This document shows, one piece after another, positions 21,856 to 35,658 of a stretch of DNA of 64,000 nucleotides. The position numbers and the translations under genes are program-made. Source of the DNA: a virus; UHGV virus genome UHGV-0084588. The stretch is one strand, 5' to 3'. The notes beneath the pieces are model-generated. The model saw nothing but the letters and a program-made list of their open reading frames with translations. It made no database searches and was not told where the DNA came from. Positions within the stretch are counted from its first letter, which is position 1; each line of letters begins with the position of its first letter.

Positions 21856-21890
21856 TACCCTACTCCCGTTAAGGAGTAGGGTACTTTTTA
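21856..21890. terminator. bidirectional terminator between convergent genes
   Basis: TACCCTACTCC-cgttaa-GGAGTAGGGTA hairpin flanked by A/T-rich runs, between the plus gene ending at 21772 and the minus gene ending at 21888. Confidence 0.7.
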
Positions 21891-22370
21891 TTGTTCCGCA
21901 GGATGGAGCATTGTTCCAGTGTCAGGCGCTACACCTTCTATACAGCGGAAGAAAGTAATGCCTTTACCATCGCCCGTTTTATATTCTAAAGTAGAATACG
22001 CAAATGTTGGTGTTTTTGAAAGCAAACCATTTACACGGTAGTAACGTTGTCCCGTGATAGGATCAATATTCCCATTAACTTTACCTAATAAATCTTTATA
22101 AAGTTGGGGCGACTCAATCTTACCATTTGGCCAAGTGGCTACCCAATTAGCACCAGTATCGACTACGGTTACTGAGCCTAACATTAGATTAGTCGAGCTG
22201 ACGACAGGTTTGTAATTTGCAAAATCTTGCTCTACACCCATGCAGGTGTAAATAACCATGTCGTGTGGCTCCACCGGCACAGTCGAGAATTGGCCGTTAC
22301 CATTTGGTTGTAAGGCACATCCTGCTAATGAAAAAACACCAAGCATAACGATAAGAAAACGCTTTATCAT
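21888..22370 (-). CDS. lipoprotein
   Basis: Start taken at the ATG at 22370 (AAGGTG RBS); MIKRFLIVMLGVFSLAGC carries a lipobox before the Cys; convergent with the lysis-like block. Confidence 0.6.
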   Translation of the reverse strand: MIKRFLIVMLGVFSLAGCALQPNGNGQFSTVPVEPHDMVIYTCMGVEQDFANYKPVVSSTNLMLGSVTVVDTGANWVATWPNGKIESPQLYKDLLGKVNGNIDPITGQRYYRVNGLLSKTPTFAYSTLEYKTGDGKGITFFRCIEGVAPDTGTMLHPAEQ

Positions 22371-22433
22371 ACTTTTCACCTTTTTTATAAAAAGTTAAAA
22401 AAAATATTTTTACAGACAACCCTTACTGCCGAC

Positions 22434-22510: not shown

Positions 22511-23041
22511 ATGGCTAAAACCTTCCAACAGCAACTTATTGACGCTGTTAATACCAAAAACAGTACCCTGGACCCCGCACTCACCGTAGCTGATGTTGAC
22601 TTTGGTGCTGTTGCTGAGTTCACCGGAGAAGCTGGCCGCAACACTAAAATTACCCTGACCGCCAAGGAAGAAAGCCAGCACTTCAAGGGCGAGAAAGAAT
22701 TCCACTATACTCGTCTTTCATGCGACATCGTTGGTGAAGTTGAAGTAACTGCACCTGCTACCGATTTCGATTCAGCAGCGAAAATCCTGGCGAAAGTTAA
22801 CGCAGCCATGGCTGAGAAAGGGTACACCGATGACGAGTTCGGTGAAAACGACCTGCAAAGTATTTCTCGTGAAGAAGAAGGCAAAACCATTTACGTAGTA
22901 ACTGTTGTGGCCGGACACCTGAAGTTCCTGCCAGGCACTGTTGCAACGTATAAAGTTACTCCTCCGGCTCCTGAGAAAGTAGCACTGGACGGTCTGGAAG
23001 GTGAACTGGATAGCTTCACTGCACCGCTTCCTAAAGAGTAA
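22511..23041 (+). CDS. paralog-family protein (family A-related)
   Basis: 176 aa; paralog of 23107..23637 and of the 18506/19368/3448/10163 family. Confidence 0.6.
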   Translation: MAKTFQQQLIDAVNTKNSTLDPALTVADVDFGAVAEFTGEAGRNTKITLTAKEESQHFKGEKEFHYTRLSCDIVGEVEVTAPATDFDSAAKILAKVNAAMAEKGYTDDEFGENDLQSISREEEGKTIYVVTVVAGHLKFLPGTVATYKVTPPAPEKVALDGLEGELDSFTAPLPKE

Positions 23042-23046
23042 TTGAA

Positions 23047-23080
23047 CCGGGGGGGGGGTAACCTCCCCCGATATTTCTTT
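23047..23080 (+). terminator. hairpin terminator containing a G10 homopolymer
   Basis: CCGGGGGGGGGG-taa-CCTCCCCCG followed by a T-rich stretch. Confidence 0.5.
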
Positions 23081-23106: not shown

Positions 23107-23637
23107 ATGGCCGCTACTAACCAGATGATGTTGGTCGCGCTTTATAATGCTGCTAACACTGAGCTACCACATCAGATTACTGATAAAGAAGTGTCCTTTG
23201 GTCTCCCTACTGCGCTGGAAGGCAAAAGTAAGAATACCAAAGTTACCATGACTGCACTACCGGGTTCTGAGAATTTCAAAGGCGCAATCGAGCTGCATTA
23301 CGATCGTCTGGAGCCGGGTGTTGTAGGACGTATTGAACTAACTGACGATTTGTCTCGTTGGGAAGATCAAAACGAATTGCGCGCATGGTTACAATATTAC
23401 ATCAACAAAGTAAAACCTGACGACGCTATCGCACCTGGTGACGTTGTGTACAGCACCGAAGACCAGAAAGACGAACATGATAACGTCACACTGCGTACGG
23501 TAACGTGCACCGTTACTGAAAAGAACCTCCGTTATAAACCGGGTGTAATGGCAACTTTCGTAATTACGCCGAAAGTTGTTGACAATCGTATTGACCTGGC
23601 CACTACCAACGGCGAGCTGGACGGCTTTACGTCCTAA
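23107..23637 (+). CDS. paralog-family protein (family A-related)
   Basis: 176 aa; TAAGGATTTAAGATAATG context. Confidence 0.6.
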   Translation: MAATNQMMLVALYNAANTELPHQITDKEVSFGLPTALEGKSKNTKVTMTALPGSENFKGAIELHYDRLEPGVVGRIELTDDLSRWEDQNELRAWLQYYINKVKPDDAIAPGDVVYSTEDQKDEHDNVTLRTVTCTVTEKNLRYKPGVMATFVITPKVVDNRIDLATTNGELDGFTS

Positions 23638-23639
23638 GA

Positions 23640-23692
23640 AAAATAAAAAAATACCTACCTCCCGTAATAGGAGGTAGGTATATCTTTTTTTC
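23640..23692. terminator. bidirectional terminator
   Basis: A-run, then ATACCTACCTCC-cgtaata-GGAGGTAGGTAT, then T-run, between convergent genes. Confidence 0.8.
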
Positions 23693-23700
23693 ACTGTCGA

Positions 23701-24372
23701 TTACAGCCCTTGCTCTAACGCAAACGCTTTTATCGAATCGTAATCACGCGCCTCAGCCCAAGCCCTGACTTCTTTTTTCTGCTCAGACATTGCGTGGTGT
23801 AGTCTTTGATCACGCGCAACGATTGCTGCCATCAGCGCTTTGCACTGCTCTAACGAAAAAGGTTCGATGCGGGTGTTAGCCGTGTCCAACCAATAACTCG
23901 GTGCTGTTTCAGACTGGATATACTGGCCCAACATTTGACGAGACGTTTCGTCCGCTTGGAAGTAGCGACCATCGACTTCAATATATCCGTGGCGCTGATC
24001 TTCATAACGGTGTTCCATCTCCAACATGATTTTCTGGATATCGAGATAGATGTAACGCGCCGTCGAACGCATATTCGTTCGAATCTCTTCCAGGTTAATC
24101 TCCAGAACGTCAGTAATGAATTCTTTTGCTTTGTTCAGTGTAAACTTCGACTCGATAGGAGACATTTCGTAAGTTTTCATCTGGGCTAAAGCTTCTTCAT
24201 CACTCATCCCTTCAATCAACTTGTAGTGCAGTAATGCACAGAACCCCGTACGTCCACGGTCTTCGTTACCTACACGTTCCATGTAGTTACCATGGCGGTC
24301 AATTGGTAGATCGTGCGCGAAATAACGTGCGCGAATCTCTTCTTTCGTTAAGCTTTTGTTAGAAGCAGACAT
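23701..24372 (-). CDS. hypothetical protein (last gene of the radical SAM block)
   Basis: 223-aa ORF overlapping the upstream gene by about 25 nt. Confidence 0.55.
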   Translation of the reverse strand: MSASNKSLTKEEIRARYFAHDLPIDRHGNYMERVGNEDRGRTGFCALLHYKLIEGMSDEEALAQMKTYEMSPIESKFTLNKAKEFITDVLEINLEEIRTNMRSTARYIYLDIQKIMLEMEHRYEDQRHGYIEVDGRYFQADETSRQMLGQYIQSETAPSYWLDTANTRIEPFSLEQCKALMAAIVARDQRLHHAMSEQKKEVRAWAEARDYDSIKAFALEQGL

Positions 24373-24914
24373 TCTTCTTCTCCAACCATACCTAATTCTT
24401 GCAGCAAGCCAAAATCAATCAACTGGAAGGTTTCAGAGAGATCGTTTGACCACACCACGTTTGCAATGTCGCGTTCTTCATCGGATAATTGCGGTAACAC
24501 ATTTTCGTTGAACGTCTGATGCTCTACGTAATAAGCATCGTAGATAGACGTAGAACGCAAGCAACGGATTGGCAGTCTTGGGAAAGACACCGCTAATGCA
24601 GCAATAGATGCGCTGCTCGGATTCTCCGCAGAATAGCGAAGCAATTCGATTTTGTGGCGCGGATAGTCCAGTACGCGTTGCTCGAAACCCGGATTACGTT
24701 TTTCGATTTCAACAACGGACTCATGACCTGTTTCTGTACAGTAAACGGGAATCATCACGTTTAGCCCGTACTTAATTAACAGAGGTTTAATCTCATCTGT
24801 AAAGTCTTCGCCAGGGATAATGGCGTGAACGTTATAGAGTTTATGTTTGCGCAGAAAACGCTCAACCAGATGGAGTTTACGCTTCGTAAAATTGTGGATC
24901 AGAATTGATTTCAT
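24348..24914 (-). CDS. hypothetical protein
   Basis: Start taken at the internal ATG at 24914 (GAGG about 9 nt upstream); overlaps the 3' end of the radical SAM gene. Confidence 0.45.
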   Translation of the reverse strand: MKSILIHNFTKRKLHLVERFLRKHKLYNVHAIIPGEDFTDEIKPLLIKYGLNVMIPVYCTETGHESVVEIEKRNPGFEQRVLDYPRHKIELLRYSAENPSSASIAALAVSFPRLPIRCLRSTSIYDAYYVEHQTFNENVLPQLSDEERDIANVVWSNDLSETFQLIDFGLLQELGMVGEEECLLLTKA

Positions 24915-26211
24915 TATTTGCCTCAGTAGGTTGTGCATTTAAAGCACGTTTAGCTTGCTCACGCTCACGCGTACATTTCGGACAGTAACAAACAGACGAA
25001 TCGTGCAGTGACGATGCGTGGACGGTACCCGTACGTTGACGCCAGTATTCTGCTGCCATCAGTTTTGCGGTCGTCCAGCCACATTGACGACGTTCAGCGT
25101 GGTACGCCTTACGGTCTTCCAGTGTCCCTTCACCGTTTTCGTAGGAAGCAGCTGCACAGCTGCCACAACCGTGTTTCATCGGACAGCCTAAGCACGTTTC
25201 AGGGTAGTTAGTATATTGCGTCTGAATCTCTTCCAGCAGCTTCCCGTCATCTAAACTAACGAACTCGCGACCAACTAATTCAAACACCGCAGAACGTGAC
25301 GTTACCGTTGACATAAAACGGTTACAACCGTATACCTTGCGGTCAAAACCTAAACAGGTCATGAACGTTAACGTACCACAGAACGGACGTAGGCGATCTG
25401 GGTTATAACGATGCGTGTCGTCATACAGCAGCTTATCGCGCCAATCTGGGTCCCAAATCTGACGGAAATCCAGACCTTCGGGAATGATATGTGACAACAC
25501 GTTACGTGGATTGGTGTGCAACCCTTTCTCAATCCAATAATCCATCACGTCGATCATCTGCAACGCAATATCCGTTGCCATGCTCCGTGGAAGAATATCT
25601 TCGTACGTAACGTTACCTGAAATCGTACCGCCACCGGCAACATCGATTAGCGATTTCATACTCGCTGCATAATGCGGTAACGTTTCGGTCGTAAAGGTTG
25701 CCTTGATACCCAGTTCAGCAATACCGACTTCTTTTAAGTAGTTATAGCCACGAACAGCGGCTTCGTAAGAACCTTGACGCGTCGTGGTAAAGATACGATA
25801 GCGGTCATGGACTTCTGGTAAACCGTCGATAGAAACACCGATGGAGAGTTTGTCTTTCCAACGCTCAACAATCTCACGGTTTAACGGGCGATCTAACAAC
25901 GTACCGTTAGTTGAGATACTGAACATATACGGGCGATTGTGCTCCTTACACAACTGTTCTGCGGTTTCGAACGCCGCTAACAGCAGTTTCGGTTGCATAA
26001 AAGGCTCACCGCCGATGATATCAATAATGACGTCGATGTTCGGAATATCTTTATCGCGCTCAAAACACGCGTGTAAGAAATCCACGATATCCGCCGCTTT
26101 GTTATTACGCGGATACTTACGTTCGTAACAATACTCACAGTCTAAGTTACAAGACAGATTCGTTACCACCTGGTAAGTACGTTGAGAACGTGGTGCTTCA
26201 TTATTGCTCAT
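24877..26211 (-). CDS. radical SAM enzyme with C-terminal SPASM-like Cys cluster
   Basis: CNLDCEYC (CxxxCxxC) at residues 21-28, GGEPF SAM-binding motif, and C-terminal CLGCPMKHGCGSC plus additional Cys, as in SPASM maturases. Confidence 0.75.
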   Translation of the reverse strand: MSNNEAPRSQRTYQVVTNLSCNLDCEYCYERKYPRNNKAADIVDFLHACFERDKDIPNIDVIIDIIGGEPFMQPKLLLAAFETAEQLCKEHNRPYMFSISTNGTLLDRPLNREIVERWKDKLSIGVSIDGLPEVHDRYRIFTTTRQGSYEAAVRGYNYLKEVGIAELGIKATFTTETLPHYAASMKSLIDVAGGGTISGNVTYEDILPRSMATDIALQMIDVMDYWIEKGLHTNPRNVLSHIIPEGLDFRQIWDPDWRDKLLYDDTHRYNPDRLRPFCGTLTFMTCLGFDRKVYGCNRFMSTVTSRSAVFELVGREFVSLDDGKLLEEIQTQYTNYPETCLGCPMKHGCGSCAAASYENGEGTLEDRKAYHAERRQCGWTTAKLMAAEYWRQRTGTVHASSLHDSSVCYCPKCTREREQAKRALNAQPTEANNEINSDPQFYEA

Positions 26212-27118
26212 CTTTGCTTATCCTTTTACGCTCTGCATAAATCACGCGTTTAATGTACTCGTAAGCACCTACTCCAATAGAGCAAGCGAGCTGATTGCAG
26301 CCACCGTTTAAGATAGCTGGGGCATTCTGAAGCTGATGTTCTGTTCCATCTGCGTTCAAATACAACTCTTCGCTACAAACATTACACTCGTTTTCGAAAA
26401 TCTTGCTGACAGACACGCCGCACGATTCTCCAGTTTGGACGTTCAACCGTTCCATATTCTCCTGAATTTTTAAATAGCCATAAACGAAGTTCATGACGTG
26501 ATCAGGAGACAATGGTTTTGGCATCTGCGCATCAAACATTAGAGAAAACGCACGGGGACGATAGTGGTACATCGCACGATGCAAATCCACAATATCTTCA
26601 TACCAGCGCTTATCCGCTAACTGGTCACGCGTAATCACAGCCCAGGTTTGGAAATTATCGAGTTCGTATAACGCTTCCAATGCTTCGTGGCTATCCTCTT
26701 CAATAAAGCGCATAAAAGGGCGCTCAGAACGCTTGTAGCCATCAATTGATACAAACACATGCTCAAAGTCTTTTAGCAGCGTAAGATGCGATTTACGCAG
26801 TTTTAAGCCGTTGGTATACAAGTGATGCTCAAGGTGCGGATGAGACACTTTCAATTCGTTAACGAAATCCTCAATCTTACGTTGGACGAGTAGCGGCTCG
26901 CCACCGGTCCAATGTATTTCCTTAATAGCCGGATTCTCTTGTAGTAATTCCAGGATACGTTCGCGTTGAAAAGCACGAGACGAATCTTCACGATTCATGT
27001 AGTAGGCTCCACCGCAGAAACTACAATCTAGGTTACACTTAGACGTCGTAACTACGGACAATATAGTGGGTTTATCGTACAACTTCGTCGAGATCCTGGA
27101 TTCCACATTGTCTATCAT
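26201..27118 (-). CDS. radical SAM enzyme (second, shorter)
   Basis: CNLDCSFC (CxxxCxxC) near the N-terminus, GGEPLL motif, and a C-terminal Cys cluster (CNVCSEE...GGCNQLACS); overlaps the downstream gene by 11 nt. Confidence 0.7.
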   Translation of the reverse strand: MIDNVESRISTKLYDKPTILSVVTTSKCNLDCSFCGGAYYMNREDSSRAFQRERILELLQENPAIKEIHWTGGEPLLVQRKIEDFVNELKVSHPHLEHHLYTNGLKLRKSHLTLLKDFEHVFVSIDGYKRSERPFMRFIEEDSHEALEALYELDNFQTWAVITRDQLADKRWYEDIVDLHRAMYHYRPRAFSLMFDAQMPKPLSPDHVMNFVYGYLKIQENMERLNVQTGESCGVSVSKIFENECNVCSEELYLNADGTEHQLQNAPAILNGGCNQLACSIGVGAYEYIKRVIYAERKRISKDEQ

Positions 27119-27138
27119 TGCAGGTTGCTCCAGTATTT

Positions 27139-28026
27139 TTAAATATAATCGATGGCGAATAAAGGATCTTCGTCGAAGTTAACACCTGGTTTTAAAATCA
27201 GTGGTGAATTATACGCTTCCAGTAAACGGTTAAGTTCGTTGTAGCGGCTATTCATCCGTTTGAGGTCTTCTAAGGTTACAACACGGTCCAGCATCGGTTT
27301 AACCGCTGCGGCTTCCTCGTCAGTCAATTTAACTTTCGACAACAGGAAACTGACGAGTTTAGAAATGTCCGCTTCGGTGGCTGGACTCTGACCGAAACGT
27401 ACCTGAACCATGTGCTGCATCCACGGTTTACGAATGCGTTTCGTAATCACGTGTTCGTCAGTAATGGCTTTCCAAACCGAACGCTCACGAATCCATTCAA
27501 ACTTATAGCTGTACGCCATTAAGTCAGCCAGATGCGTAATTCCGAGTTCTTGATAACCTTCAATATCGATATACGGTTCCGTATCAAAATACTCTTTGGT
27601 ATCCTTTTCAACCAAAGCGTAGTAGTTAGGGAACGCACCCAGGTAGTCTGGGCTCCACCAACGACGGGCCATCGGTTTAGCATCGAGTTCTTCAAACGGC
27701 GTGAACATAAGTTCTAAGTCAACTGTATTATTTAACACACCGTCGCTAAAGAAATATTTGCCGTCGATAAGTTTACCGCGTTGTGAGTTATCACCGGTAA
27801 AGACAACAATGCTTTCGCCAACCATATCACGAATTTTAAACGTGTTCTCAACCGTAAAGTTGTCACGATTAGCGATATGACGGCCGCGCACTTTCGGCCA
27901 TTCCCCAGGAATCATGGCAATTAAACGTACGTCGTCGGCAAGATGGTGACGTACCGAATCAGGGGAAGAGATGTGAAGTGGATGATTGAACGTTGTCGTA
28001 TATGCAAGATGTAGATCGTTCTTCAT
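27139..28026 (-). CDS. hypothetical protein
   Basis: 295-aa ORF between the Cys-rich genes and the radical SAM genes. Confidence 0.55.
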   Translation of the reverse strand: MKNDLHLAYTTTFNHPLHISSPDSVRHHLADDVRLIAMIPGEWPKVRGRHIANRDNFTVENTFKIRDMVGESIVVFTGDNSQRGKLIDGKYFFSDGVLNNTVDLELMFTPFEELDAKPMARRWWSPDYLGAFPNYYALVEKDTKEYFDTEPYIDIEGYQELGITHLADLMAYSYKFEWIRERSVWKAITDEHVITKRIRKPWMQHMVQVRFGQSPATEADISKLVSFLLSKVKLTDEEAAAVKPMLDRVVTLEDLKRMNSRYNELNRLLEAYNSPLILKPGVNFDEDPLFAIDYI

Positions 28027-28094
28027 TGATTACTCCAATTATTTCACGGTCAAACGGTCATTCAGGCTATAGAGTCTACCACTGGAGGGTTTAC

Positions 28095-28301
28095 TTACCT
28101 TCCCCCCGCACCTTTACTACAGCTACCACTGCACGCCCAGCTACAACTGCCGTTACAGTTATAGTGGGTTAATGGTAATCCTGCCAAGTTATTCGTCGTG
28201 GACACCGTACCTTGGTTAGCGATGTAGTTATTCGCGTCTGAGGTTTTGATGTAGCCTTCAACCTGACCGATTCTGTCTCGAATATTTTTGAGGGAAATCA
28301 C
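28095..28301 (-). CDS. Cys-rich leader/core small protein 3 (short core)
   Basis: GTG start with AGGAGGTGA RBS; leader MISLKNIRDRIGQVEGYIK..., then HYNCNGSCSWACSGSCSKGAGGR. Confidence 0.6.
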   Translation of the reverse strand: MISLKNIRDRIGQVEGYIKTSDANNYIANQGTVSTTNNLAGLPLTHYNCNGSCSWACSGSCSKGAGGR

Positions 28302-28311
28302 TTCTCACCTC

Positions 28312-28707
28312 CTATCGTCCTGTACACGCTGAGCAACCGCCAGTACAGCTACTGGAACACGATGCTGTGCACCCGCCAGAACAAGTGCCTGAGCACAGGT
28401 TAGCACACCCACCTGAACAACTCCCCGAGCACCCTGAACACGAAGTGGAACACCCTGACGTACAGTTTGCAGAACATGAGGAACCACAACCGCCGGACGC
28501 GTTCCCAGTACACCCACCAGAACAACTCGAACAGGTAAACGAACACGTACCCGCACAGTCGTAATGCGCACGATTCTGACCGCCGAACAGGTCTGCGTTA
28601 TTCGTACCTTTATTGCGGATATAGTTCTGTACACCCGTGGTATTTTTCAGTGCGATACTATCGACGTTATTAAGACGTCTTACTAATTCAGATAAACCGA
28701 CTGCCAT
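28312..28707 (-). CDS. Cys-rich leader/core small protein 2
   Basis: Leader MAVGLSELVRRLNNVDS... then an ~80-aa core of C-[ST]-x-x-C repeats (HYDCAGTCSFTCSSCSGGCTGN...); GGGGGAAG RBS. Confidence 0.65.
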   Translation of the reverse strand: MAVGLSELVRRLNNVDSIALKNTTGVQNYIRNKGTNNADLFGGQNRAHYDCAGTCSFTCSSCSGGCTGNASGGCGSSCSANCTSGCSTSCSGCSGSCSGGCANLCSGTCSGGCTASCSSSCTGGCSACTGR

Positions 28708-28716
28708 TTCTTCCCC

Positions 28717-29109
28717 CTATCGTCCAGAGCATCCGCCGGAGCAAGCACCCGAACAGTTATGCGAACAACGTCCAGTACAACTTCCGGTACAGGTACTTGT
28801 ACAACTGCTAGAACAACCGCCAGAACAGCCAGAGCATCCTGAACAGTTACCCCCACAGGACGAAGAACAGCTACCCACACAAGCGGCTGAACAGTTACCT
28901 GAACAGCTAGAGCAACCGTGACTACATCCGTTAGAACATGTCCACGAACACGTTCCTCCGCAGTCTAAACGTGAAGGTGTCCAACCAGAAAACGAATCTG
29001 CCGCGTTATGCGCTTTCGATGCGACCTGCGCATCGACACGAGGGCCGGTAGCGACTGTATTTTCTACTACGGTTAACCGATCGCGCATTTGTTTAACACT
29101 AATCGCCAT
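28717..29109 (-). CDS. Cys-rich leader/core small protein 1
   Basis: Leader MAISVKQMRDRLTVVEN... then SRLDCGGTCSWTCSNGCSHGCSSCSGNCS... ending GCSGR; AAGGAAG RBS. Confidence 0.65.
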   Translation of the reverse strand: MAISVKQMRDRLTVVENTVATGPRVDAQVASKAHNAADSFSGWTPSRLDCGGTCSWTCSNGCSHGCSSCSGNCSAACVGSCSSSCGGNCSGCSGCSGGCSSSCTSTCTGSCTGRCSHNCSGACSGGCSGR

Positions 29110-29174: not shown

Positions 29175-30374
29175 TTATCTCGTACCTGCTTCTGCCTGAA
29201 CGTCATCACGGGACGTCAAGTTAGCGTTAACGTGCACTGAAGCCTGAACCACACCGCCGTATTTCTTGTGCAGGTAACCTGTGTGTGGGTTATCCGCCGC
29301 AATATGGTTTTGTAGGTTCTGATTCGCCTGACTGATTGCGTTCGTGTTATTCGCAACCTGTTGTTTAAGCGCATCCAAGTTTTGTTGCAGATTATCAATT
29401 TTCTGATCGGTCTCATTACCCCGCTGTTCTAACGCAGCAATGCGCTGAATCGCTTGGTTGAGCTTGGTGTTCAGATCGTTGATATTTTTCTGTAACTGTA
29501 ACACTAACGAGTTTAGGTTCGCCAGTGCCAGTGCCATTTTCTGGTAGTTTTGTGCAACGACGTTAAGTTGGTCGTTCCACGCTTCCAGAGATTTGACAAC
29601 AGCATCAATACGTTTTCCTAACGCTTCGTCCGCTTTCTTCAATGCGTTGATTTCAGTAATCGTTGCATCAATGGCAGACTGCACGTCGCGGATAAGCGCA
29701 CGGATTTCCGTTTCCGTTAACCCGTTAACCTGATGAATATCCAGATGGTGGACATTACCAGTGGAGTTAATGTGCGCGTTCAGCGCGTCCAGGAAATCGT
29801 TTTTCAGGCTATCGAGAATCGCTTTGATGTTCTCAAGCTGTACAGCATCGCCCGCAGTTATCGCATCTTTAATACCGGCGAGCACTGTAATGATGTATTC
29901 GAAGCCGTAGATATCGCCGACGTCTTTATACGTTGGTGCCGAAGGAAACGTGTCCGGCACATTTCGCAAGTCTTTAAAGCCAACAGTTCGATTATCGAGA
30001 TTCAACTCGGCAATCGCTTGCTCAATCGCGGTCACAACTGCAGACTGTGGACCACCAACTACTTGCGCCGATACCGTGATATCGGTCGGAATCGCGGTGT
30101 TCGTTACAACAACCGCCATTACTACTTCCCGGTTCTTCGTCAATTTCTCGTAAGCCGGGTGTGCAAAAATCAGCTCATAGTCCGTTCCACGCTCATACGT
30201 CGCTCCAGGTCGATTGGCAACCCGCAAGCGGAACGTATCGGCATAAAACGGGCCATCAGGGAAAGCAAACGCACGGTTAACTTTACCTGTACCTAACGTA
30301 ATCTGACGCTCCACGGCGTTAGAGGTTAGGGTTCCCGTTAAATCTAAAGGGTATTGGTATACAATGGAGGCCAT
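29175..30374 (-). CDS. fibre-like protein with N-terminal anchor motif and coiled-coil shaft
   Basis: Start at the ATG at 30374 (AAGGAGAG RBS); N-terminal FAFPDGPFYADTFRLRV...GTDYELIF shared with the three giant tailspikes; long heptad-like region. Confidence 0.6.
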   Translation of the reverse strand: MASIVYQYPLDLTGTLTSNAVERQITLGTGKVNRAFAFPDGPFYADTFRLRVANRPGATYERGTDYELIFAHPAYEKLTKNREVVMAVVVTNTAIPTDITVSAQVVGGPQSAVVTAIEQAIAELNLDNRTVGFKDLRNVPDTFPSAPTYKDVGDIYGFEYIITVLAGIKDAITAGDAVQLENIKAILDSLKNDFLDALNAHINSTGNVHHLDIHQVNGLTETEIRALIRDVQSAIDATITEINALKKADEALGKRIDAVVKSLEAWNDQLNVVAQNYQKMALALANLNSLVLQLQKNINDLNTKLNQAIQRIAALEQRGNETDQKIDNLQQNLDALKQQVANNTNAISQANQNLQNHIAADNPHTGYLHKKYGGVVQASVHVNANLTSRDDVQAEAGTR

Positions 30375-30414: not shown

Positions 30415-33400
30415 TTAAGATGTAAACATAAGATTGAACTGGAGCTTATCGATATCGCGAGTTTGTGCTGGGTTAACCGCATCGTACGTGGTTGCCACGT
30501 AGACCGTTAACGTGCCGTCAGAAAACGCGGTTTTCACCGGTGGTGTAGTCCCTGTCTGTCCATCAGTTACAATGACGACAGGTTGAGCCGGGAGTTGACG
30601 AAACTGACTCTTAACCGCTTTATACACCAAACCAGATTGTGCCGCTTGCTCTGTGGCGGTGTACACGATAAACGGTGTGTCGATATCTGTCTGTTTAATG
30701 ACAGTGTTCGTCTCAACGTCAATCAGCTGAACAGCACCAAATTTGGTCCGGTAACTATCGTATTCATTTTTTGGAATGACAAACGTAGCATGAAGGCGGA
30801 CTTCGGCGGCTGGCTTAAATCCCGCGTGTTCTTTTTCCAGGTAACTGTTAGCAGTTAGCGTTACTGTCTGTTCAGTCATCGTACCGCCAGACTGATTTAG
30901 CCCGTAACGAACTTGAGTTATACCTGTCGGGGCCGCAAGCCTGATTTTCAGTCGACGATTAGTAGTACCAGGATCGCCAGGTACTTTAACACGCAGACTC
31001 AATGCCAGATATGCATACTCGCCGGTAGTCGGTTTCGTATACGCACCCAACCACTTCATGTTCGCGGTTGCTGCTTGTTTGTTCTCAGAAGCAGTAGCCG
31101 CTGCAACGTTCGCAGCAACCGCTTTCTGCCAGAACTGGTCAGCGCAGTTCTCATACGCCACCCTGCTGATACTTTTATAACCTGAATAGGTTTCCTGTAC
31201 CGGCAACCTGGGCCGCGTTGCAATCCCGGACAACGTATTCCATTTCTGGCCATCGACATACCCAGCACCCTTGCTCGCAGATGCTGTAATGGCTTTAACG
31301 GGTTTATTAACCACTGTTAATAGTGGACCAGTTTTCCTGTCGAACGCCTGCGCCACATCGTGCTGATCAACAACCGAGGCATGATTTTCCAGCTCTTTTA
31401 CACGACCTAACCGTTTTACTTTATCGATACTGATATCCGTAATACGGTTCGAATCAGTGGTTACTGTCCCAACAAACAGTCTCGACGAGGTATCAGCTAA
31501 CTGCTCTAAACCGATGCGGTATTGGGCAGTAGAACCGACCACTTCAGCATAAACGTAGAATGTCTGGTTAGCGTGATTAGTCGGGAATTCATCGCTTAAA
31601 TCAACGGACCATCTTGGAACGGTATATCTTTTATTTCCAAAACTTAACTCGGTTTCCTCCGTCAGATAGAAATTCCAACCGCTCTGTGTTTGTACGCCGC
31701 CAATAATAATCTTATCGATAACAGTATATTTTTTGTTAAACAAATCAGAGATTCTATACTGTTCGCCACCGAGATACAACTCGTTTAAATCTTCCGAGTT
31801 ACAAGTCAATAGCGCGATGCCCGAGAGATCGGGTATATAGACTTCAGATGTATTATTCAGCGTATACGTATAGCCCCACGCCCGATGAATTTCGCCGGTA
31901 AACCATTCTCCTTTTTTAGTCAAGTTTATCCCAAAAGCAAAAGAAATCTCTGATCCTACAAGATTCCCGCCAACCAGGTTATGTATTGAGAATCTGAACT
32001 TTTGTCCGTCTTGCGAATAAAGGAAAACTTGACCGGAGCGTTGTTTAAGTTCACCATTAAAAGCTGTGGGTGAGAGATTAATGGCGTTACTGGCCACTTT
32101 TTCCCTGAACGTCATCATTCTCGCTTCCGAACTAACGAACCTTATGACCCCGTTGGTTATAGTCGGTTTTACCTGAAAGAAGTAAAAAGCAAACTTATTT
32201 ACCCCGTCAGTGTCTTTATAGATAAGACTCACTATCGCGATACAAAGCGGACCACCAGACATCGTTTGACCAAGCACCCAAAAGGACAAACTGTAGTTGT
32301 TCTTTTTGGTCTTAGCTACGCTAATCCGCTCATAGGCGTTGCCGTTAGAAGCCCCAGAGAACTGGCTGGACTGAACAATATTAGTCAACTTCGCCCATTC
32401 TGCCGCATCGATAGACAACCGATCACTAGCCACCGTAGTGGTACCGTAAACAACTTTACATGGTTTACTTTCAGCACCGATAAAGTAAGCCCCATCTAGT
32501 AGACCTTTCGGTATGTCTGGCGTAACAACCAGCGGTATATTTGTCAATACGCCGTATTCGTTCGCTTTTTTTTCAACACGGCGGGATGTTGGTCCAAACC
32601 CGCCGTATCCAGGATAACCATAAGTCGTATCTTTATCATATTCGGCTTCAATGAAATAAGCCGTTTTTTGATGTTTAAGCCATACTTTGTTTGTTCCTGG
32701 GAAGAACAATGGGAAGGTCATAGACGGTTTCCACACCGAACCCACCACAGGGTTTATCCGATTTTCAAACGTAGATTGCCCCTCATACCCCGCACTCAAC
32801 TTAACATAGTCCAGATAACTAACTCCTTCTGGGAGTTTCTGGTAATGGAGAGATGGTGCAAGTTGTTTTTCTGTCGAACAGCAGCAAGAATAAACCATAT
32901 CACCGACACAGATTCTATTGTCGGCCATATAGCCAGAACTTCGAGTAGCCCATTTCCATTTCAGCTCTATTTTTGTTCCGTCTTTTAAGTAGCAACCTGT
33001 AGTATCGATTTTGATTGGGAAGATGTTAGTTGTCTCTAACCCAACCTCCCCGGTTAATAGGTCGAGACGATAAGCACCATTCCATGGCCCGAATGTGGTA
33101 CCTTTCGTTGAAGAAAAACCAAGACAAACGCCAGACACGCCGACGGTTAACAAGTGACCGTCCTTAACAACGGGCGTTATCCATCTTGACACCCCTCTAG
33201 TTAATTGTAAATTCACTGTCCACAACGCTTTGCCTTCCGCAGTGAAGTAGGCAAGACGCTTCGTATTCGGATTATCTACATCGAACGCGCCAGGTTCAAC
33301 CAAATCGGCACACTTACCGATTTTTCGTGTAGAGCTTAAATCAACCTGTTCAAACCGATCGGTTTTATTAAGCCGCAATAACCCAACACGGAACATAGGT

Positions 33401-35601
33401 TGCGGAGTATCCTTAATGTAGTCCACCAGACTATTGTTTTTCAGATCGGCCATTAGCATCGTACGCAAAACATAAACGCCATTATCGGCTATGACCACAC
33501 GATCCATGAACATATTCGGCACAAATTCCCATGTTGTTTCTGAAACAAATTCTGAGAAAGTTACCAACCTGACATCGGTATGTTTGGTGTAATCCATTGA
33601 ACCGTTCAGTTTAACTAAATAATAATTATCGTCGCTGCCCTTCGCTATAAATGCTTCGGTACCAGTAACGGTAATTTCTTTTAGTTCCACCCCCGGATAA
33701 TTCGTCTCTAACCCTTTCGGCTTATAACGGAAAGTTGTTTTGTAAATTTCACCGAGACTTTTGTCGTTTTTTAACCCAGCAACAGCGTAATAAATACCCT
33801 CAGTTCCCGGAAGGGCAGATTTAGAACTAATTAAAGCATAAAGCTTACCTTGTTGTACCCCTATAACCATCTGGAGCGCATCCATGTTTTTACCATAACC
33901 TTCGTAATTACCCATCGACAAGATCGGCAATATCGAATTGTTGGTATATTTGCTCCCGGCCGTTGTCCATGCGGGCAAGAGGGTATTCAGTTTATCAGAG
34001 ACCTTCTTAATCTCTTTTGCGAACAACCACCCTTGGCGTGATGTGACGGCTTTATCATTCGTGGTATCAATCGCATCCCACAGCTGTAAGATACCGTCCA
34101 CTGTTGCGCTACCGATCGGGACATTATCCAAATCAGCGGTAGTGTGCGTGTGTACCTTCAAACTTTTATTTTTCAGCACGTTCGCTAATGCTTTTGTTAC
34201 CGGTTTAGCGATGGGTGTGGTGTTATTCATCTTATCGATACCGAAATCGGCCTTCGTTAAGGTTAACACCATGTTGTCGCCTGTCTTAACAAACCCTTTA
34301 CCGTTAACCGTGTAGTCGTCGTCAACGTACAAGTCCAACCGGTCTTTTAATTCGGTCACAGCCTTTTGGGAAATAGCAGTGCCTAGCGCTACAGAGGTTG
34401 CGATATTCGTAATCGAAAACACCCCATAAACCGACTCGGTTGCTGTGGGAATATTCGCATTCAACGTTAGTGGGTTAGACTGCTTCGCTGTACCGTACGG
34501 TTTTACGGTGTCAGACGATTTGAAATAGGCGTTCGCTTCAAGTAACGTTACAGACGTCAGGTACATGTTCACCATTTCTGGTGTAACCAAATACACAGAG
34601 TTATAGACCGGTGCTAATACATCCTGTTCTGACCCAGAATGTACCCAAAGCGTATTCAGCCCCGCACTAAACTCAACCGCCAAACCGGATTCGTTGTTGT
34701 CTTGGTCTGCTTTAATCACTAACGGTTGTGGTGAAGTAATTAACCACTTATCACCACGGATGCTGATGATGTGTCCACCCGGTGTTTTAAACGTTAGTTC
34801 ATTACCGTTCGTGGTACCCCAACGACCGTAAACGGTACCGAGGGCTTCGCCCATTAACTGTTCAACGTCTGATTGCTCAATGCCCGCCGAACCCATCAGC
34901 GTAGCCAGTTGGTCAATTGTCAACCCAAACGCTTTTGTAGCGTCAACAGCACGTCCTAAAACCGGAAGGGCCCCAACGTCATTGGTCGTATACTGGTGAG
35001 CGTTAGGATTAAGGTGGTGTTGGTATAGTTCTTCATCGAAAATCTTTTTACCGTTCTCGTAAATCAGGTTAGTGACTTCGGTGAAGGCCGCATCTAACTC
35101 TGTTGAACGCTGAATGATTTTCTTGCGGATATCGTTCAACGCTTTAACGACCTCGTCCCTCAGAATCGCTTCTTCTAAGTTAGCAGGGGGGTCGATTGGT
35201 TGAATAACCGGCGCGTACGCCATTAACTCCGACCAGTCCACGTTACGTGGGTCTTTCAGGTCAGTACGAACTAAGAACTTCCCGATTTCAGATTGCGGTA
35301 CACGGTATTGACGTGCTACCCCTAAAATCTCATATTCGATTTCTGTTGCAGTAAGCAACATAAACCCGCCATAAATCTGATCTTGTTCAGCTTCTGCGAG
35401 TTCTTTAAAGTAATAGCCTAAATAGTAGTCCAACCCCTCAATCAGAGTACGACGTCCGTTAGGCGCGGTATCGTCGGCTACTGTGAGTTTTAATCCGATA
35501 CGATAAAAAGGTCCTTCAGGCGGAATGACCACGTTAAATCGGTTAGGGTACGTCGTTGTGCTTAGCGTACCGTTAAACTGCGCCGCGTCTTCTCTCGGCA
35601 T
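30415..35601 (-). CDS. giant tailspike/tail-fibre protein (1728 aa)
   Basis: N-terminal VIPPEGPFYRIGLKLTV...LIEGLDYYL anchor motif (T7 gp17 / T4 gp10-like as recalled); a tail-fibre-type segment with KVHTHTTADL; AGGAG RBS. Confidence 0.75.
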   Translation of the reverse strand: MPREDAAQFNGTLSTTTYPNRFNVVIPPEGPFYRIGLKLTVADDTAPNGRRTLIEGLDYYLGYYFKELAEAEQDQIYGGFMLLTATEIEYEILGVARQYRVPQSEIGKFLVRTDLKDPRNVDWSELMAYAPVIQPIDPPANLEEAILRDEVVKALNDIRKKIIQRSTELDAAFTEVTNLIYENGKKIFDEELYQHHLNPNAHQYTTNDVGALPVLGRAVDATKAFGLTIDQLATLMGSAGIEQSDVEQLMGEALGTVYGRWGTTNGNELTFKTPGGHIISIRGDKWLITSPQPLVIKADQDNNESGLAVEFSAGLNTLWVHSGSEQDVLAPVYNSVYLVTPEMVNMYLTSVTLLEANAYFKSSDTVKPYGTAKQSNPLTLNANIPTATESVYGVFSITNIATSVALGTAISQKAVTELKDRLDLYVDDDYTVNGKGFVKTGDNMVLTLTKADFGIDKMNNTTPIAKPVTKALANVLKNKSLKVHTHTTADLDNVPIGSATVDGILQLWDAIDTTNDKAVTSRQGWLFAKEIKKVSDKLNTLLPAWTTAGSKYTNNSILPILSMGNYEGYGKNMDALQMVIGVQQGKLYALISSKSALPGTEGIYYAVAGLKNDKSLGEIYKTTFRYKPKGLETNYPGVELKEITVTGTEAFIAKGSDDNYYLVKLNGSMDYTKHTDVRLVTFSEFVSETTWEFVPNMFMDRVVIADNGVYVLRTMLMADLKNNSLVDYIKDTPQPMFRVGLLRLNKTDRFEQVDLSSTRKIGKCADLVEPGAFDVDNPNTKRLAYFTAEGKALWTVNLQLTRGVSRWITPVVKDGHLLTVGVSGVCLGFSSTKGTTFGPWNGAYRLDLLTGEVGLETTNIFPIKIDTTGCYLKDGTKIELKWKWATRSSGYMADNRICVGDMVYSCCCSTEKQLAPSLHYQKLPEGVSYLDYVKLSAGYEGQSTFENRINPVVGSVWKPSMTFPLFFPGTNKVWLKHQKTAYFIEAEYDKDTTYGYPGYGGFGPTSRRVEKKANEYGVLTNIPLVVTPDIPKGLLDGAYFIGAESKPCKVVYGTTTVASDRLSIDAAEWAKLTNIVQSSQFSGASNGNAYERISVAKTKKNNYSLSFWVLGQTMSGGPLCIAIVSLIYKDTDGVNKFAFYFFQVKPTITNGVIRFVSSEARMMTFREKVASNAINLSPTAFNGELKQRSGQVFLYSQDGQKFRFSIHNLVGGNLVGSEISFAFGINLTKKGEWFTGEIHRAWGYTYTLNNTSEVYIPDLSGIALLTCNSEDLNELYLGGEQYRISDLFNKKYTVIDKIIIGGVQTQSGWNFYLTEETELSFGNKRYTVPRWSVDLSDEFPTNHANQTFYVYAEVVGSTAQYRIGLEQLADTSSRLFVGTVTTDSNRITDISIDKVKRLGRVKELENHASVVDQHDVAQAFDRKTGPLLTVVNKPVKAITASASKGAGYVDGQKWNTLSGIATRPRLPVQETYSGYKSISRVAYENCADQFWQKAVAANVAAATASENKQAATANMKWLGAYTKPTTGEYAYLALSLRVKVPGDPGTTNRRLKIRLAAPTGITQVRYGLNQSGGTMTEQTVTLTANSYLEKEHAGFKPAAEVRLHATFVIPKNEYDSYRTKFGAVQLIDVETNTVIKQTDIDTPFIVYTATEQAAQSGLVYKAVKSQFRQLPAQPVVIVTDGQTGTTPPVKTAFSDGTLTVYVATTYDAVNPAQTRDIDKLQFNLMFTS

Positions 35602-35619: not shown

Positions 35620-35658
35620 TAAATAAAATGGATACCCCTCCCCATTACAGGGAGGGGT
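35620..35658 (-). terminator. hairpin between tailspike genes
   Basis: ACCCCTCC-ccattacag-GGAGGGGT, followed on the minus strand by a U-rich stretch and the RBS of the next gene. Confidence 0.5.

Follow-up and report, generated by a model that had tools for sequence, protein, structure and literature searches.

The stretch analyzed here, 64,000 nucleotides of the UHGV virus genome UHGV-0084588 (termed the window below), carries on its minus strand three small paralogous genes for cysteine-repeat proteins (CysA, CysB, and CysC), followed by an accessory gene (ORF295) and by two genes for radical S-adenosylmethionine (SAM) enzymes, rSAM-1 and rSAM-2. A preliminary description of this locus, made from the letters alone, offered two fates for the products: cross-linked proteins associated with the tail fibre, or a secreted modified peptide. 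Because comparative evidence, namely loci in fibre regions and CXXX-repeat cores fused to fibre proteins, supports the first fate and disfavors the second, the module is on balance best read as a source of enzymatically cross-linked fibre or fibre-tip proteins, not of a secreted peptide.

At the DNA level, the region is ~74% identical to Salmonella phage SPN3US and its relatives, a group of jumbo phages that are Seoulvirus-like and related to phiKZ. Salmonella is the probable host, since a protein 99% identical to rSAM-2 is present in Salmonella enterica assemblies at NCBI. The six genes of the cluster are as follows.

28717..29109, minus strand: CysA, 130 amino acids; a 49-residue helical and junction N-terminal region and an 81-residue CXXX-repeat core with 21 cysteines; phrog_6085, 2.7e-37
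28312..28707, minus strand: CysB, 131 amino acids; paralog with the junction motif NNADLFGGQNRAHYDC and a CXXX core, 20 cysteines; phrog_6085, 8.6e-43
28095..28301, minus strand: CysC, 68 amino acids, GTG start; short paralog with only the conserved first three CXXX units (CNGSCSWACSGSC); phrog_6085, 1.2e-25
27139..28026, minus strand: ORF295, conserved accessory protein in the slot between substrates and enzymes
26201..27118, minus strand: rSAM-1, 305 amino acids; small radical SAM enzyme, CNLDCSFC; PF04055, 8.5e-15
24877..26211, minus strand: rSAM-2, 444 amino acids; radical SAM/SPASM maturase, CNLDCEYC; PF04055, 5e-14

Cysteine-repeat proteins

The cysteines of these proteins are regularly spaced. 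In CysA, 17 of the 20 spacings between its 21 cysteines equal four residues and 3 equal three; in CysB, with 20 cysteines, 15 of 19 equal four, 3 equal three, and 1 equals eight; and all three spacings between the 4 cysteines of CysC equal four. This gives 17, 15, and 3 CXXX units, respectively, with the consensus C-S-G-[G/S/T], encoded on the same strand as the enzymes and 0.9–1.9 kb upstream of the rSAM-1 start codon. The CysA core consists of ~80 uncharged residues, and the cores are nearly devoid of lysine and arginine and thus have few tryptic sites.

All three of the paralogous Cys-rich proteins announced in the preliminary description (130, 131, and 68 residues, minus strand) are present, and their open reading frames (ORFs) are kept in five relatives, SPN3US, pEa_SNUABM_29, Wellington, CR5, and phiEaH2, across four genera. 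CysC corresponds to a 68-residue ORF in SPN3US and pEa_SNUABM_29 and to annotated genes of ~69 residues in Wellington, CR5, and phiEaH2. A comparison of the window with SPN3US shows 27, 16, and 72 differing sites in CysA at codon positions 1, 2, and 3, with a similar bias in the N-terminal region and in the core, and by this measure the Cys ORFs are under purifying selection. No other Cys-repeat ORF, and no other ORF with both CX3CX2C and GGEP motifs, is found elsewhere in the 64-kb window, nor in any of 30 shuffles.

The low-complexity DNA of these genes leaves several frames open. The possibility that the Cys ORFs are artefacts of such frames is countered by the codon-position test, by conservation across genera, and by Shine-Dalgarno motifs, of which AGGAGGTG precedes CysC.

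Annotation at this position is irregular in related genomes. In SPN3US (NC_027402/JN641803; loci L001/L003, 9408–10437), gp166 (gp100 in RefSeq) covers CysB in an incorrect frame, and annotation is missing for CysA and CysC. With corrected frames, CysB lies at 143413–143817 and CysC at 143191–143397 on the minus strand of JN641803, and CysA in the region of 144286–144220. In pEa_SNUABM_29 (L002, 9413–10435), the CysA and CysB positions carry two annotated ORFs on the opposite strand.

The preliminary description also presented the proteins as leader and core peptides. A conserved N-terminal region and a Cys-rich core are indeed present, but the reading of the former as a cleaved segment probably does not hold. 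The two parts meet in a junction motif, N-x3-[FL]-x-G-x5-[HY]-Y-x-C-x-G-x-C-S-W-[TS]-C, which together with the first repeat units is the most conserved part of the proteins and the only part retained in CysC; C51, C55, C59, S60, C62, and G65 are invariant, and Y49 almost invariant. The CysB homologs (P0046–P0055), some of which carry a precomputed match to Pfam PF27846, include proteins of 206–212 residues with fibre-like N-terminal domains, and a CXXX protein of a Deferribacter prophage is matched by CysB at 2.7e-13 (phmmer). Three larger homologs (P0050, P0052, and P0053) consist of a fibre-like N-terminus, a coiled coil, and then the junction motif that ends the supposed leaders of the window. 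The supposed leader aligns to internal segments of such proteins (P0050 residues 95–206; L050 residues 55–169), and in the phrog_6085 profile its positions likewise map inside P0050-type proteins. Because its homologous counterpart in larger fibre proteins is an internal segment made of coiled coil and junction, the N-terminal region of ~49 residues is probably a minimal helix-plus-junction domain rather than a cleaved leader.

Radical SAM enzymes and ORF295

Two radical SAM enzymes had been proposed from the motifs CNLDCSFC and CNLDCEYC. Both exceed the gathering cutoff of Pfam PF04055 (Radical_SAM; 29.5 bits), with 55.8 bits for rSAM-1 and 53.3 bits for rSAM-2. The CX3CX2C cysteines are C28/C32/C35 in rSAM-1 and C21/C25/C28 in rSAM-2, and a GGEP-type SAM-binding motif is present.

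The SPASM-like C-terminal cysteine cluster that had been noted in rSAM-2 is a seven-cysteine pattern, which in SPASM enzymes serves two auxiliary [4Fe-4S] clusters. Six of its members (C278, C296, C340, C343, C349, and C352) are invariant among homologs that are 23–73% identical, as are the three radical SAM cysteines in the same alignment, and C373 lies downstream. The motif aligns with the SPASM motif of CteB, and homologs of rSAM-2 carry the JGI name "radical SAM protein with 4Fe4S-binding SPASM domain", while a search of rSAM-2 for Pfam SPASM gave no match at E<=0.1. The radical SAM motif starts at residue 21, and rSAM-2 thus has no N-terminal RRE domain. At its other end, a C-terminal extension (window 24877–25080, residues ~400–444) contains a conserved CxCxxC triad and a QFYEA end in the jumbo clade only; it is missing from the gut-phage and P2-like enzymes and could serve as a docking tail or as an additional metal site.

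The earlier reading of rSAM-2 as a RiPP-like (RiPP, a peptide made on the ribosome and post-translationally modified) radical SAM/SPASM maturase of Cys-rich substrates holds at the family level. In the profile searches that had been suggested, rSAM-2 is closest to maturases of Cys-rich substrates. Among NCBIfam families it scores best on TIGR04115 (6e-36; 124.7 bits, in two stretches), named "radical SAM peptide maturase, CXXX-repeat target family"; the PapB ranthipeptide maturase is second (4e-32, 111.7 bits), and further SPASM maturases of peptides and proteins follow, among them HxsB, SCIFF, QhpD, and CcpM. The nearest solved structure is that of CteB, the SCIFF thioether synthase (5WGG, 7.7e-13). 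All of the NCBIfam matches lie below the curated cutoffs, and for this reason rSAM-2 is classed as a divergent relative of TIGR04115, not as a member.

The nearest characterized relatives, PapB and CteB, make thioethers the somewhat favored form of link in the window proteins. A considerably less likely but substantial alternative, compatible with a structural role, keeps the same substrates and the same fibre function and assigns rSAM-2 another chemistry, which could be oxidation of Cys or Ser to formylglycine, epimerization, C–C cross-links, or S–S or S–C chemistry peculiar to CXXX repeats. TIGR04115 enzymes appear to be chemically uncharacterized, and the family is unmentioned in the literature searched. 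Moreover, at 1e-14 to 1e-16 the matches of rSAM-2 extend to other SPASM families, anSME and cyclophane-forming enzymes among them, the cores offer no Asp or Glu acceptor, the second radical SAM enzyme implies more than one reaction, and the regiochemistry of PapB itself depends on the substrate (PMC12373016). Set against this, the top characterized relatives (PapB at 111.7 bits, CteB, the SCIFF maturase, and QhpD) all form cysteine thioethers, and the invariant feature of the substrates is cysteine itself. Within this alternative, anSME-like formylglycine chemistry has the lower family score (57 bits), and the substrates contain no C/S-x-P/A-x-R motif; it is retained solely as one of the chemistries just listed.

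The smaller enzyme, rSAM-1, keeps an intact CX3CX2C motif across the clade together with three conserved C-terminal cysteines (CNxC...GC), which might hold one auxiliary cluster. Its nearest families, all weak matches, are cofactor-type enzymes (a tungsten-cofactor maturase and MoaA) and HxsC. Homologs of rSAM-1 adjoin the SPASM enzyme in a Deferribacter (3.7e-13) and a Campylobacter (1.8e-8) prophage. Another jumbo phage (L049) has the two fused into one protein (1e-8), in which an rSAM-1-like domain precedes the SPASM enzyme, in the order of the window genes.

Genes at the corresponding position in L049 (2.4e-8) and Deferribacter (5e-11) encode homologs of ORF295, and the Campylobacter prophage has one that is linked to it transitively. 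Scans against Pfam and NCBIfam gave no match. Its AlphaFold2 model is confident (pLDDT 86.9), and a BFVD search with this model returned its own ortholog alone and no structural neighbors. A four-gene core is thus conserved and is common to λ-like and P2-like prophages: a CXXX substrate, an ORF295-family protein, a small radical SAM enzyme, and a SPASM radical SAM enzyme.

Several records of these enzymes in other genomes deserve mention. The small radical SAM gene is annotated from an internal Met, with loss of the CX3CX2C motif, in SPN3US (gp164; L001, 7562–8356) and CR5 (CR5_154; L006, 5702–6481); both genomes, and the clade as a whole, contain the full-length ORF with the motif intact. Two related metagenomic jumbo phages (L012 and L022, 3551–4471) have an extra rSAM-1 paralog between CysA and CysB, with the CX3CX2C motif and without the C-terminal GCN motif. 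In addition, a 634-residue relative of rSAM-2 (P0157) has Pfam PF02348, a non-radical-SAM family, fused to radical SAM domains.

Enzyme and substrate pairs outside the jumbo clade

Within the jumbo clade, the radical SAM enzymes and the CXXX proteins always occur together, which shared descent could explain. The pairing also recurs independently. A viral profile search yielded 352 relatives of rSAM-2; the best 80 were examined, and 62 of these are distant (25–32% identical; 16 clusters at 70% identity). All 62 distant loci have an adjacent CXXX-repeat ORF on the same strand, upstream in 54 and downstream in 8. In bacterial genomes, a CXXX-repeat ORF lies beside 41 of the 45 loci with a full-length enzyme match, compared to none of the 35 control loci that match the generic N-terminal radical SAM domain only. 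At one gut-phage locus (L008), the enzyme matches TIGR04115 over its full length at 300.6 bits and the partner CXXX protein scores 21.3 bits, above the TIGR04114 cutoff, so that this locus bridges the window module and the curated TIGR04115/TIGR04114 system. Because of the viral and bacterial co-occurrence and of this bridge, the assignment of enzyme to substrate is well supported, and rSAM-2 very likely acts on CysA, CysB, and CysC.

The same pairing bears on an explanation in which nothing is cross-linked enzymatically: the cysteine repeats would bind metals or Fe-S clusters or be rich in disulfides, and the radical SAM enzymes would act elsewhere, on another fibre protein, a sugar, or a nucleotide. 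Regular cysteine arrays are able to bind metals, the tip of the T4 long tail fibre is stabilized by metal ions, and rSAM-1 best matches cofactor-type enzymes, not peptide maturases. However, co-occurrence as strict as 62 of 62 viral and 41 of 45 bacterial loci, against 0 of 35 for generic radical SAM domains, is hard to reconcile with enzymes that act elsewhere; the closest families of rSAM-2 all mature Cys-rich or Cys-cross-linked substrates; and the export signals of the bacterial partners described next fit modification or folding prior to export. This explanation is considered very unlikely.

The partners fall into three classes: proteins of Bacteroidales with a twin-arginine (TAT) signal, short peptides of Bacillota, and proteins, encoded by phages or prophages, that have larger N-terminal domains. 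The Bacteroidales partners have 87–206 residues, in which the twin-arginine signal is followed directly by the core; they appear to be exported and to represent a separate context for the same enzyme family. In the Bacillota locus L112, a related enzyme is accompanied by three peptides of 58–75 residues that resemble ordinary precursors. In other phages, the CXXX proteins reach ~90 repeat units.

The Bacteroidales/Prevotellaceae loci (L114–L153; for example L124, 6486–7496) place the maturase beside one to three small proteins in which the TAT signal SRREFFKKAAKGALPILGAIAL precedes the CXXX core. A period-3 variant of the module is found on a temperate phage contig with a serine recombinase and an amidase (L023, 4075–5686, and L024), where two small CxxC-repeat proteins lie between a fibre-like gene and a radical SAM/SPASM enzyme that scores best on PapB (208.6 bits).

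The tail-fibre transcription unit

The cluster had been placed right after the fibre genes and downstream of their operon. The adjacency is correct, but the genes lie inside the fibre transcription unit and not downstream of it. On the minus strand, the order is the 1728-residue baseplate/fibre gene, the gp167 homolog, CysA, CysB, CysC, ORF295, rSAM-1, rSAM-2, ORF196, and the DUF4376 gene. The members of the unit outside the cluster are as follows.

30415..35601, minus strand: giant baseplate/fibre protein, 1728 amino acids, first gene of the unit; SPN3US gp168 homolog; AGGAG Shine-Dalgarno motif 8 nt upstream
29175..30374, minus strand: coiled-coil virion/fibre protein, 400 amino acids from Met37; homolog of SPN3US gp167, "putative virion structural protein 20"
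24348..24938, minus strand: ORF196; phrog_7988, 1.2e-77
23701..24372, minus strand: DUF4376 protein, 223 amino acids, last gene of the unit; PF14301, 3.9e-10; phrog_8169
23651..23681, minus strand: terminator-like hairpin that closes the unit, 13-bp stem and T run

Gaps between the genes measure 9–68 nt or are replaced by overlaps, and the last four genes overlap: rSAM-1 and rSAM-2 by 11 nt, and ORF196 with rSAM-2 by 62 nt and with the DUF4376 gene by 25 nt. A Shine-Dalgarno-like motif precedes every gene of the unit save ORF196. A hairpin that matches the closing one lies at 35658–35634, just upstream of the giant fibre gene, and none comparable is found between the two. Because of these short gaps and overlaps, and because strong terminator-like hairpins occur at the two ends only, the Cys/rSAM cluster is placed, on sequence grounds, within the tail-fibre transcription unit.

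In SPN3US, gp168 is a baseplate/fibre protein of the phiKZ gp131 paralog family (PMC5105663). A Pfam scan of the 1728-residue homolog in the window gave no matches, and the Pfam matches of the gp167 homolog are of coiled-coil type only (residues ~214–395). The mechanical ORF of the gp167 homolog runs to 30482, which places its start 36 codons early and in overlap with the giant fibre gene; a TAAGGAG Shine-Dalgarno motif that precedes Met37 and not the first ATG, along with the SPN3US annotation, indicates Met37 (30374) as the true start. ORF196 has no match in Pfam and NCBIfam scans and is kept in SPN3US (gp162), Wellington, CR5, and phiEaH2. The DUF4376 protein, whose domain is typical of tail or tail-fibre proteins, also has weak matches to tail and tail-fibre PHROGs. 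No homologs of the 435-residue fibre protein, ORF196, or the DUF4376 protein were found in distant modules, and these three are therefore regarded as additions specific to the clade.

Tail-fibre context in related phages and prophages

Fibre and baseplate genes also surround the module in other lineages. When 127 neighboring proteins from 14 representative viral loci were compared with PHROGs, the annotated families seen most often were baseplate wedge, a large number of tail-fibre families, and tail-collar fibre. In the closest outgroups, the core belongs to a fibre protein. A 384-residue protein (L048/L191) matches the PF12571 tail-collar fibre family at 138.8 bits and ends in a CXXX core; a 451-residue protein of L049 matches tail-fibre PHROGs in its N-terminal part (2.7e-32) and phrog_6085 over residues 356–444; and the N-terminus of P0053 matches a tail-fibre PHROG. 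Locus L191 is a P2-like prophage of Campylobacter pinnipediorum (CP012547) with the order capsid, gpW, baseplate J, gpI, fibre with a CXXX tip, 250-residue ORF, SPASM radical SAM enzyme, small radical SAM enzyme, DUF1353, sheath, and tube. By this gene order, the module occupies the slot of the P2 fibre and fibre chaperone (H/G). In a Deferribacter abyssi prophage, the module comes after a λ-J-like tail tip protein.

Among the same 127 neighbors, in representatives of L048–L100, 3 match the reverse-transcriptase PHROG 1423, which suggests that diversity-generating retroelements occur near some CXXX/rSAM fibre modules.

This context bears on a classical RiPP pathway, in which the leader of ~49 residues would be removed and the cross-linked cores released as bioactive peptides against competing bacteria, other phages, or the host. 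Small paralogous precursors next to a radical SAM/SPASM enzyme are the architecture of ranthipeptide and sactipeptide pathways, the family matches of rSAM-2 are peptide maturases, the Bacillota enzyme of L112 is paired with three precursor-like peptides of 58–75 residues, and the N-terminal region is helical, as many RiPP leaders are. Three features nevertheless set the cluster apart from a strictly defined RiPP pathway: rSAM-2 lacks an N-terminal RRE, larger homologs carry the supposed leader internally, and no protease, transporter or other exporter, or immunity family was detected in Pfam, NCBIfam, and PHROG scans of the proteins of the unit. Moreover, the genes are embedded in a fibre transcription unit, leader and core together form an internal or C-terminal part of the tail-fibre proteins of relatives, the viral modules lie in baseplate and fibre regions, and cores of ~80 uncharged residues, with up to ~90 units elsewhere, are unlike known bioactive RiPPs. 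A classical RiPP is accordingly thought unlikely.

The modified CXXX proteins could instead serve as assembly factors, that is, as a transient scaffold, template, or chaperone for the folding or trimerization of the large fibre proteins, absent from the finished particle. Such a role is possible, although the chance of it is judged to be small. The module stands in the gene slot of the P2 fibre-assembly chaperone, CysA, CysB, and CysC have no obvious anchoring domain, and they go unmentioned in the studies of the SPN3US virion that were consulted. On the other hand, the core is covalently part of a fibre protein in L048/L191 and L049, and the silence of the SPN3US studies has other explanations, since the Cys ORFs are unannotated or misframed there and the cores are short of tryptic sites.

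Proposed maturation of the fibre proteins

In the reading favored here, CysA, CysB, and CysC would be small fibre or fibre-tip proteins, each made of a short N-terminal helix, the junction motif, and a CXXX-repeat rod, and they would be made late, on one transcript with the two large fibre/baseplate proteins. In the infected cytoplasm, rSAM-2 would recognize the junction and the first repeat units and, by means of SAM and three [4Fe-4S] clusters, remove hydrogen atoms from the core. It would then link the regularly spaced cysteine thiols to nearby carbons as thioethers of the sactionine or ranthionine type, and an otherwise unstructured Gly/Ser/Cys chain would become a covalently laddered rod, stable to proteases and to reduction. 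To rSAM-1 would fall a further step on this substrate, coupled to the first. ORF295, in the slot where P2 has its fibre chaperone, would be a substrate-handling or assembly partner, a role that is suggested by gene position only; the roles given to both of these proteins are weak proposals. The product would remain a protein and be built into the baseplate/fibre apparatus, and its presence in the virion is considered probable.

A number of observations weigh against this proposal. The modification, its type, and the presence of the product in the virion are all inferred from sequence. The curated TIGR04115 cutoff is 350 bits and rSAM-2 reaches 124.7, and CysA, CysB, and CysC score 15.9, 13.2, and 11.3 bits on TIGR04114, below its cutoff of 20. 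The fraction of Asp and Glu in the CXXX cores of the jumbo clade is 0.0; Cys-Asp chemistry of the PapB type is therefore inapplicable, and the acceptor would have to be Ser, Gly, Thr, Asn, or Ala. The CXXX proteins of the jumbo clade are free-standing, with no recognizable fibre-anchoring domain. The AlphaFold2 model of CysB, built on an 11-sequence alignment, has a pLDDT of 43.6, with an N-terminal helix only and an uninformative core; the lack of a predicted structure for the unmodified monomer is consistent with a chain that folds only once cross-linked or joined to partners, and proves nothing. ORF295 has no recognizable fold relative, and its role is a guess. The same enzyme family serves TAT-exported bacterial proteins and short peptides, so that a fibre role is not implied by the family alone. 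Finally, the SPN3US proteome papers that were consulted contain no mention of gp161–167 or of radical SAM.

A broader form of the proposal holds that the fibres of myovirus-like (P2-type), λ-like, gut, and nucleus-forming jumbo phages share an unrecognized post-translational modification, in which a dedicated SPASM radical SAM enzyme, joined in the window by a second radical SAM enzyme and a partner of novel fold, turns a CXXX repeat into a covalently laddered rod or tip. This generalization is tentative, and the odds are slightly against it.

Comparison with known systems

The closest match is the catalogued system of TIGR04115 with TIGR04114, TIGR04117, and TIGR04118, which provides the best hidden Markov model (HMM) matches for both the enzyme and the substrates of the window (TIGR04115 and TIGR04114). 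As in the window, a SPASM enzyme with its CX3CX2C motif at the extreme N-terminus and no RRE is adjacent to tandem CXXX proteins. The definition of this CXXX-repeat radical SAM/SPASM system reportedly goes back to in-silico work by Haft and Basu. The window differs in that its scores are far under the cutoffs (124.7 of 350 bits for the enzyme; at most 15.9 of 20 for the substrates), rSAM-2 is longer and has the clade-specific CxCxxC extension, and a second radical SAM enzyme, an ORF295-family gene, and a tail-fibre operon setting are added. No experimental paper on TIGR04115 or the CXXX-repeat family was found in the literature searched.

PapB/PapA (freyrasin) and CteB/CteA (SCIFF, thermocellin) are pairs in which a SPASM radical SAM enzyme joins the sulfur of cysteine to a side-chain carbon, and they include the second-best HMM match (PapB) and the best structural match in the PDB (CteB). 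PapA has regularly spaced cysteines in repeated CX3D units. Compared to PapB, rSAM-2 scores 111.7 bits against a cutoff of 340, and the jumbo cores have no Cys-X3-Asp/Glu acceptor; on both counts the module lies outside the PapB system. Compared to CteB, rSAM-2 has no RRE, and its radical SAM motif lies at residue 21 instead of ~106. The substrates also differ from PapA and CteA, in that CysA and CysB have 15–17 repeats, other phages have up to ~90, and the products are probably retained as proteins. A cysteine thioether to the alpha carbon defines a sactipeptide, and one to the beta or gamma carbon a ranthipeptide; in tandem mass spectrometry the alpha-linked kind fragments and the beta- or gamma-linked kind does not (PMC12373016). 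Either kind would show as a loss of 2 Da for each link and of thiols open to alkylation.

By analogy, the best precedent for radical SAM cross-links in a structural protein rather than a peptide is QhpD, to which rSAM-2 is a distant match (3.7e-15, 55.5 bits against a cutoff of 453). QhpD is a SPASM radical SAM enzyme that installs several cysteine thioethers in QhpC, a protein subunit with a structural function in a larger complex. In QhpC, which is bacterial and periplasmic and has no repeat architecture, cysteine is linked to Asp or Glu.

HxsB/HxsC of the His-Xaa-Ser systems has the same architecture, with a SPASM enzyme and a smaller non-SPASM radical SAM enzyme beside a substrate of short-period repeats. 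The matches are 5.9e-21 and 74.8 bits for rSAM-2 to HxsB (cutoff 370) and 1.3e-12 and 47.2 bits for rSAM-1 to HxsC (cutoff 267.9). The repeats of the window are CXXX and contain no His-Xaa-Ser, and the likeness is one of architecture only.

Like the module, the gpH/gpG cassette of P2 embodies the notion that the distal end of a fibre has factors of its own to act on it. Gene position is shared as well: after the CXXX-tipped fibre gene of the Campylobacter prophage come the ORF295-family gene and two radical SAM genes, all between baseplate gene I and the sheath gene. To our knowledge, fibre chaperones are non-enzymatic, whereas the accessory genes of the window encode iron-sulfur radical enzymes, and ORF295 has no detectable sequence or structural similarity to known chaperones.

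The preliminary description knew of no phage system with this composition. None was found in the literature searched either, neither a phage CXXX/rSAM fibre system nor radical SAM maturation of fibre proteins, in a search that was limited and is no proof of absence; yet the kind of enzyme and substrate had already been catalogued in silico (TIGR04115/TIGR04114). The literature searched on SPN3US-like phages does not discuss these genes beyond the label "radical SAM". What is new here is a fibre-embedded, two-enzyme, four-gene version of the catalogued CXXX/rSAM system and its generalization to many phage lineages.

Implications

Cross-linking of virion fibres by iron-sulfur radical chemistry would be a new type of virion maturation, and one as surprising to phage structural biologists as to RiPP enzymologists. 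The aids to fibre assembly known to us are chaperones, autoproteolysis, and metal binding. It would also explain the radical SAM genes of 60–70 sequenced enterobacterial jumbo phages and of at least 352 viral contigs, which are now annotated without function or as "antibiotic synthesis". For RiPP enzymology, the module would supply a biological context for an uncharacterized SPASM family, with substrates of up to ~90 repeats and a two-enzyme variant that is backed by a natural fusion. If the broader proposal is true, the in-silico "CXXX-repeat RiPP" family would largely represent the maturation of structural proteins, namely phage fibres and TAT-exported bacterial proteins, and not of secreted natural products. 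Fibres that resist redox changes and proteases could in addition matter for the stability of gut phages and for engineered receptor-binding proteins.

Since SPN3US carries the module, the proposal is directly testable there, and the ORFs are mis-annotated or missing in the SPN3US record and in others of the clade. Both amber-mutant genetics and virion proteomics exist for SPN3US (PMC5105663).

Other observations in the window and its relatives

Tandem paralogous genes of 176 residues (22511–23041 and 23107–23637, plus strand; 31% identical, E=4e-23) are convergent to the fibre/maturase unit. A poly-G hairpin (23048–23070) lies between them, and the number of copies at this position is one in SPN3US and three in pEa_SNUABM_29. 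Further along, a 163-residue ORF on the minus strand (21888–22379), conserved as SPN3US gp159 and followed by a strong hairpin (21884–21855), has a lipoprotein-type signal with a lipobox (…VFSLAGC) and may encode a phage lipoprotein.

Jumbo-phage proteins (P0056 and P0077) are also deposited as "Salmonella enterica" or "Escherichia coli", on contigs of ~220–245 kb, and the SPN3US-type protein occurs on 598 contigs. Whole jumbo-phage genomes thus seem to be common in isolate assemblies, via a carrier state or contamination.

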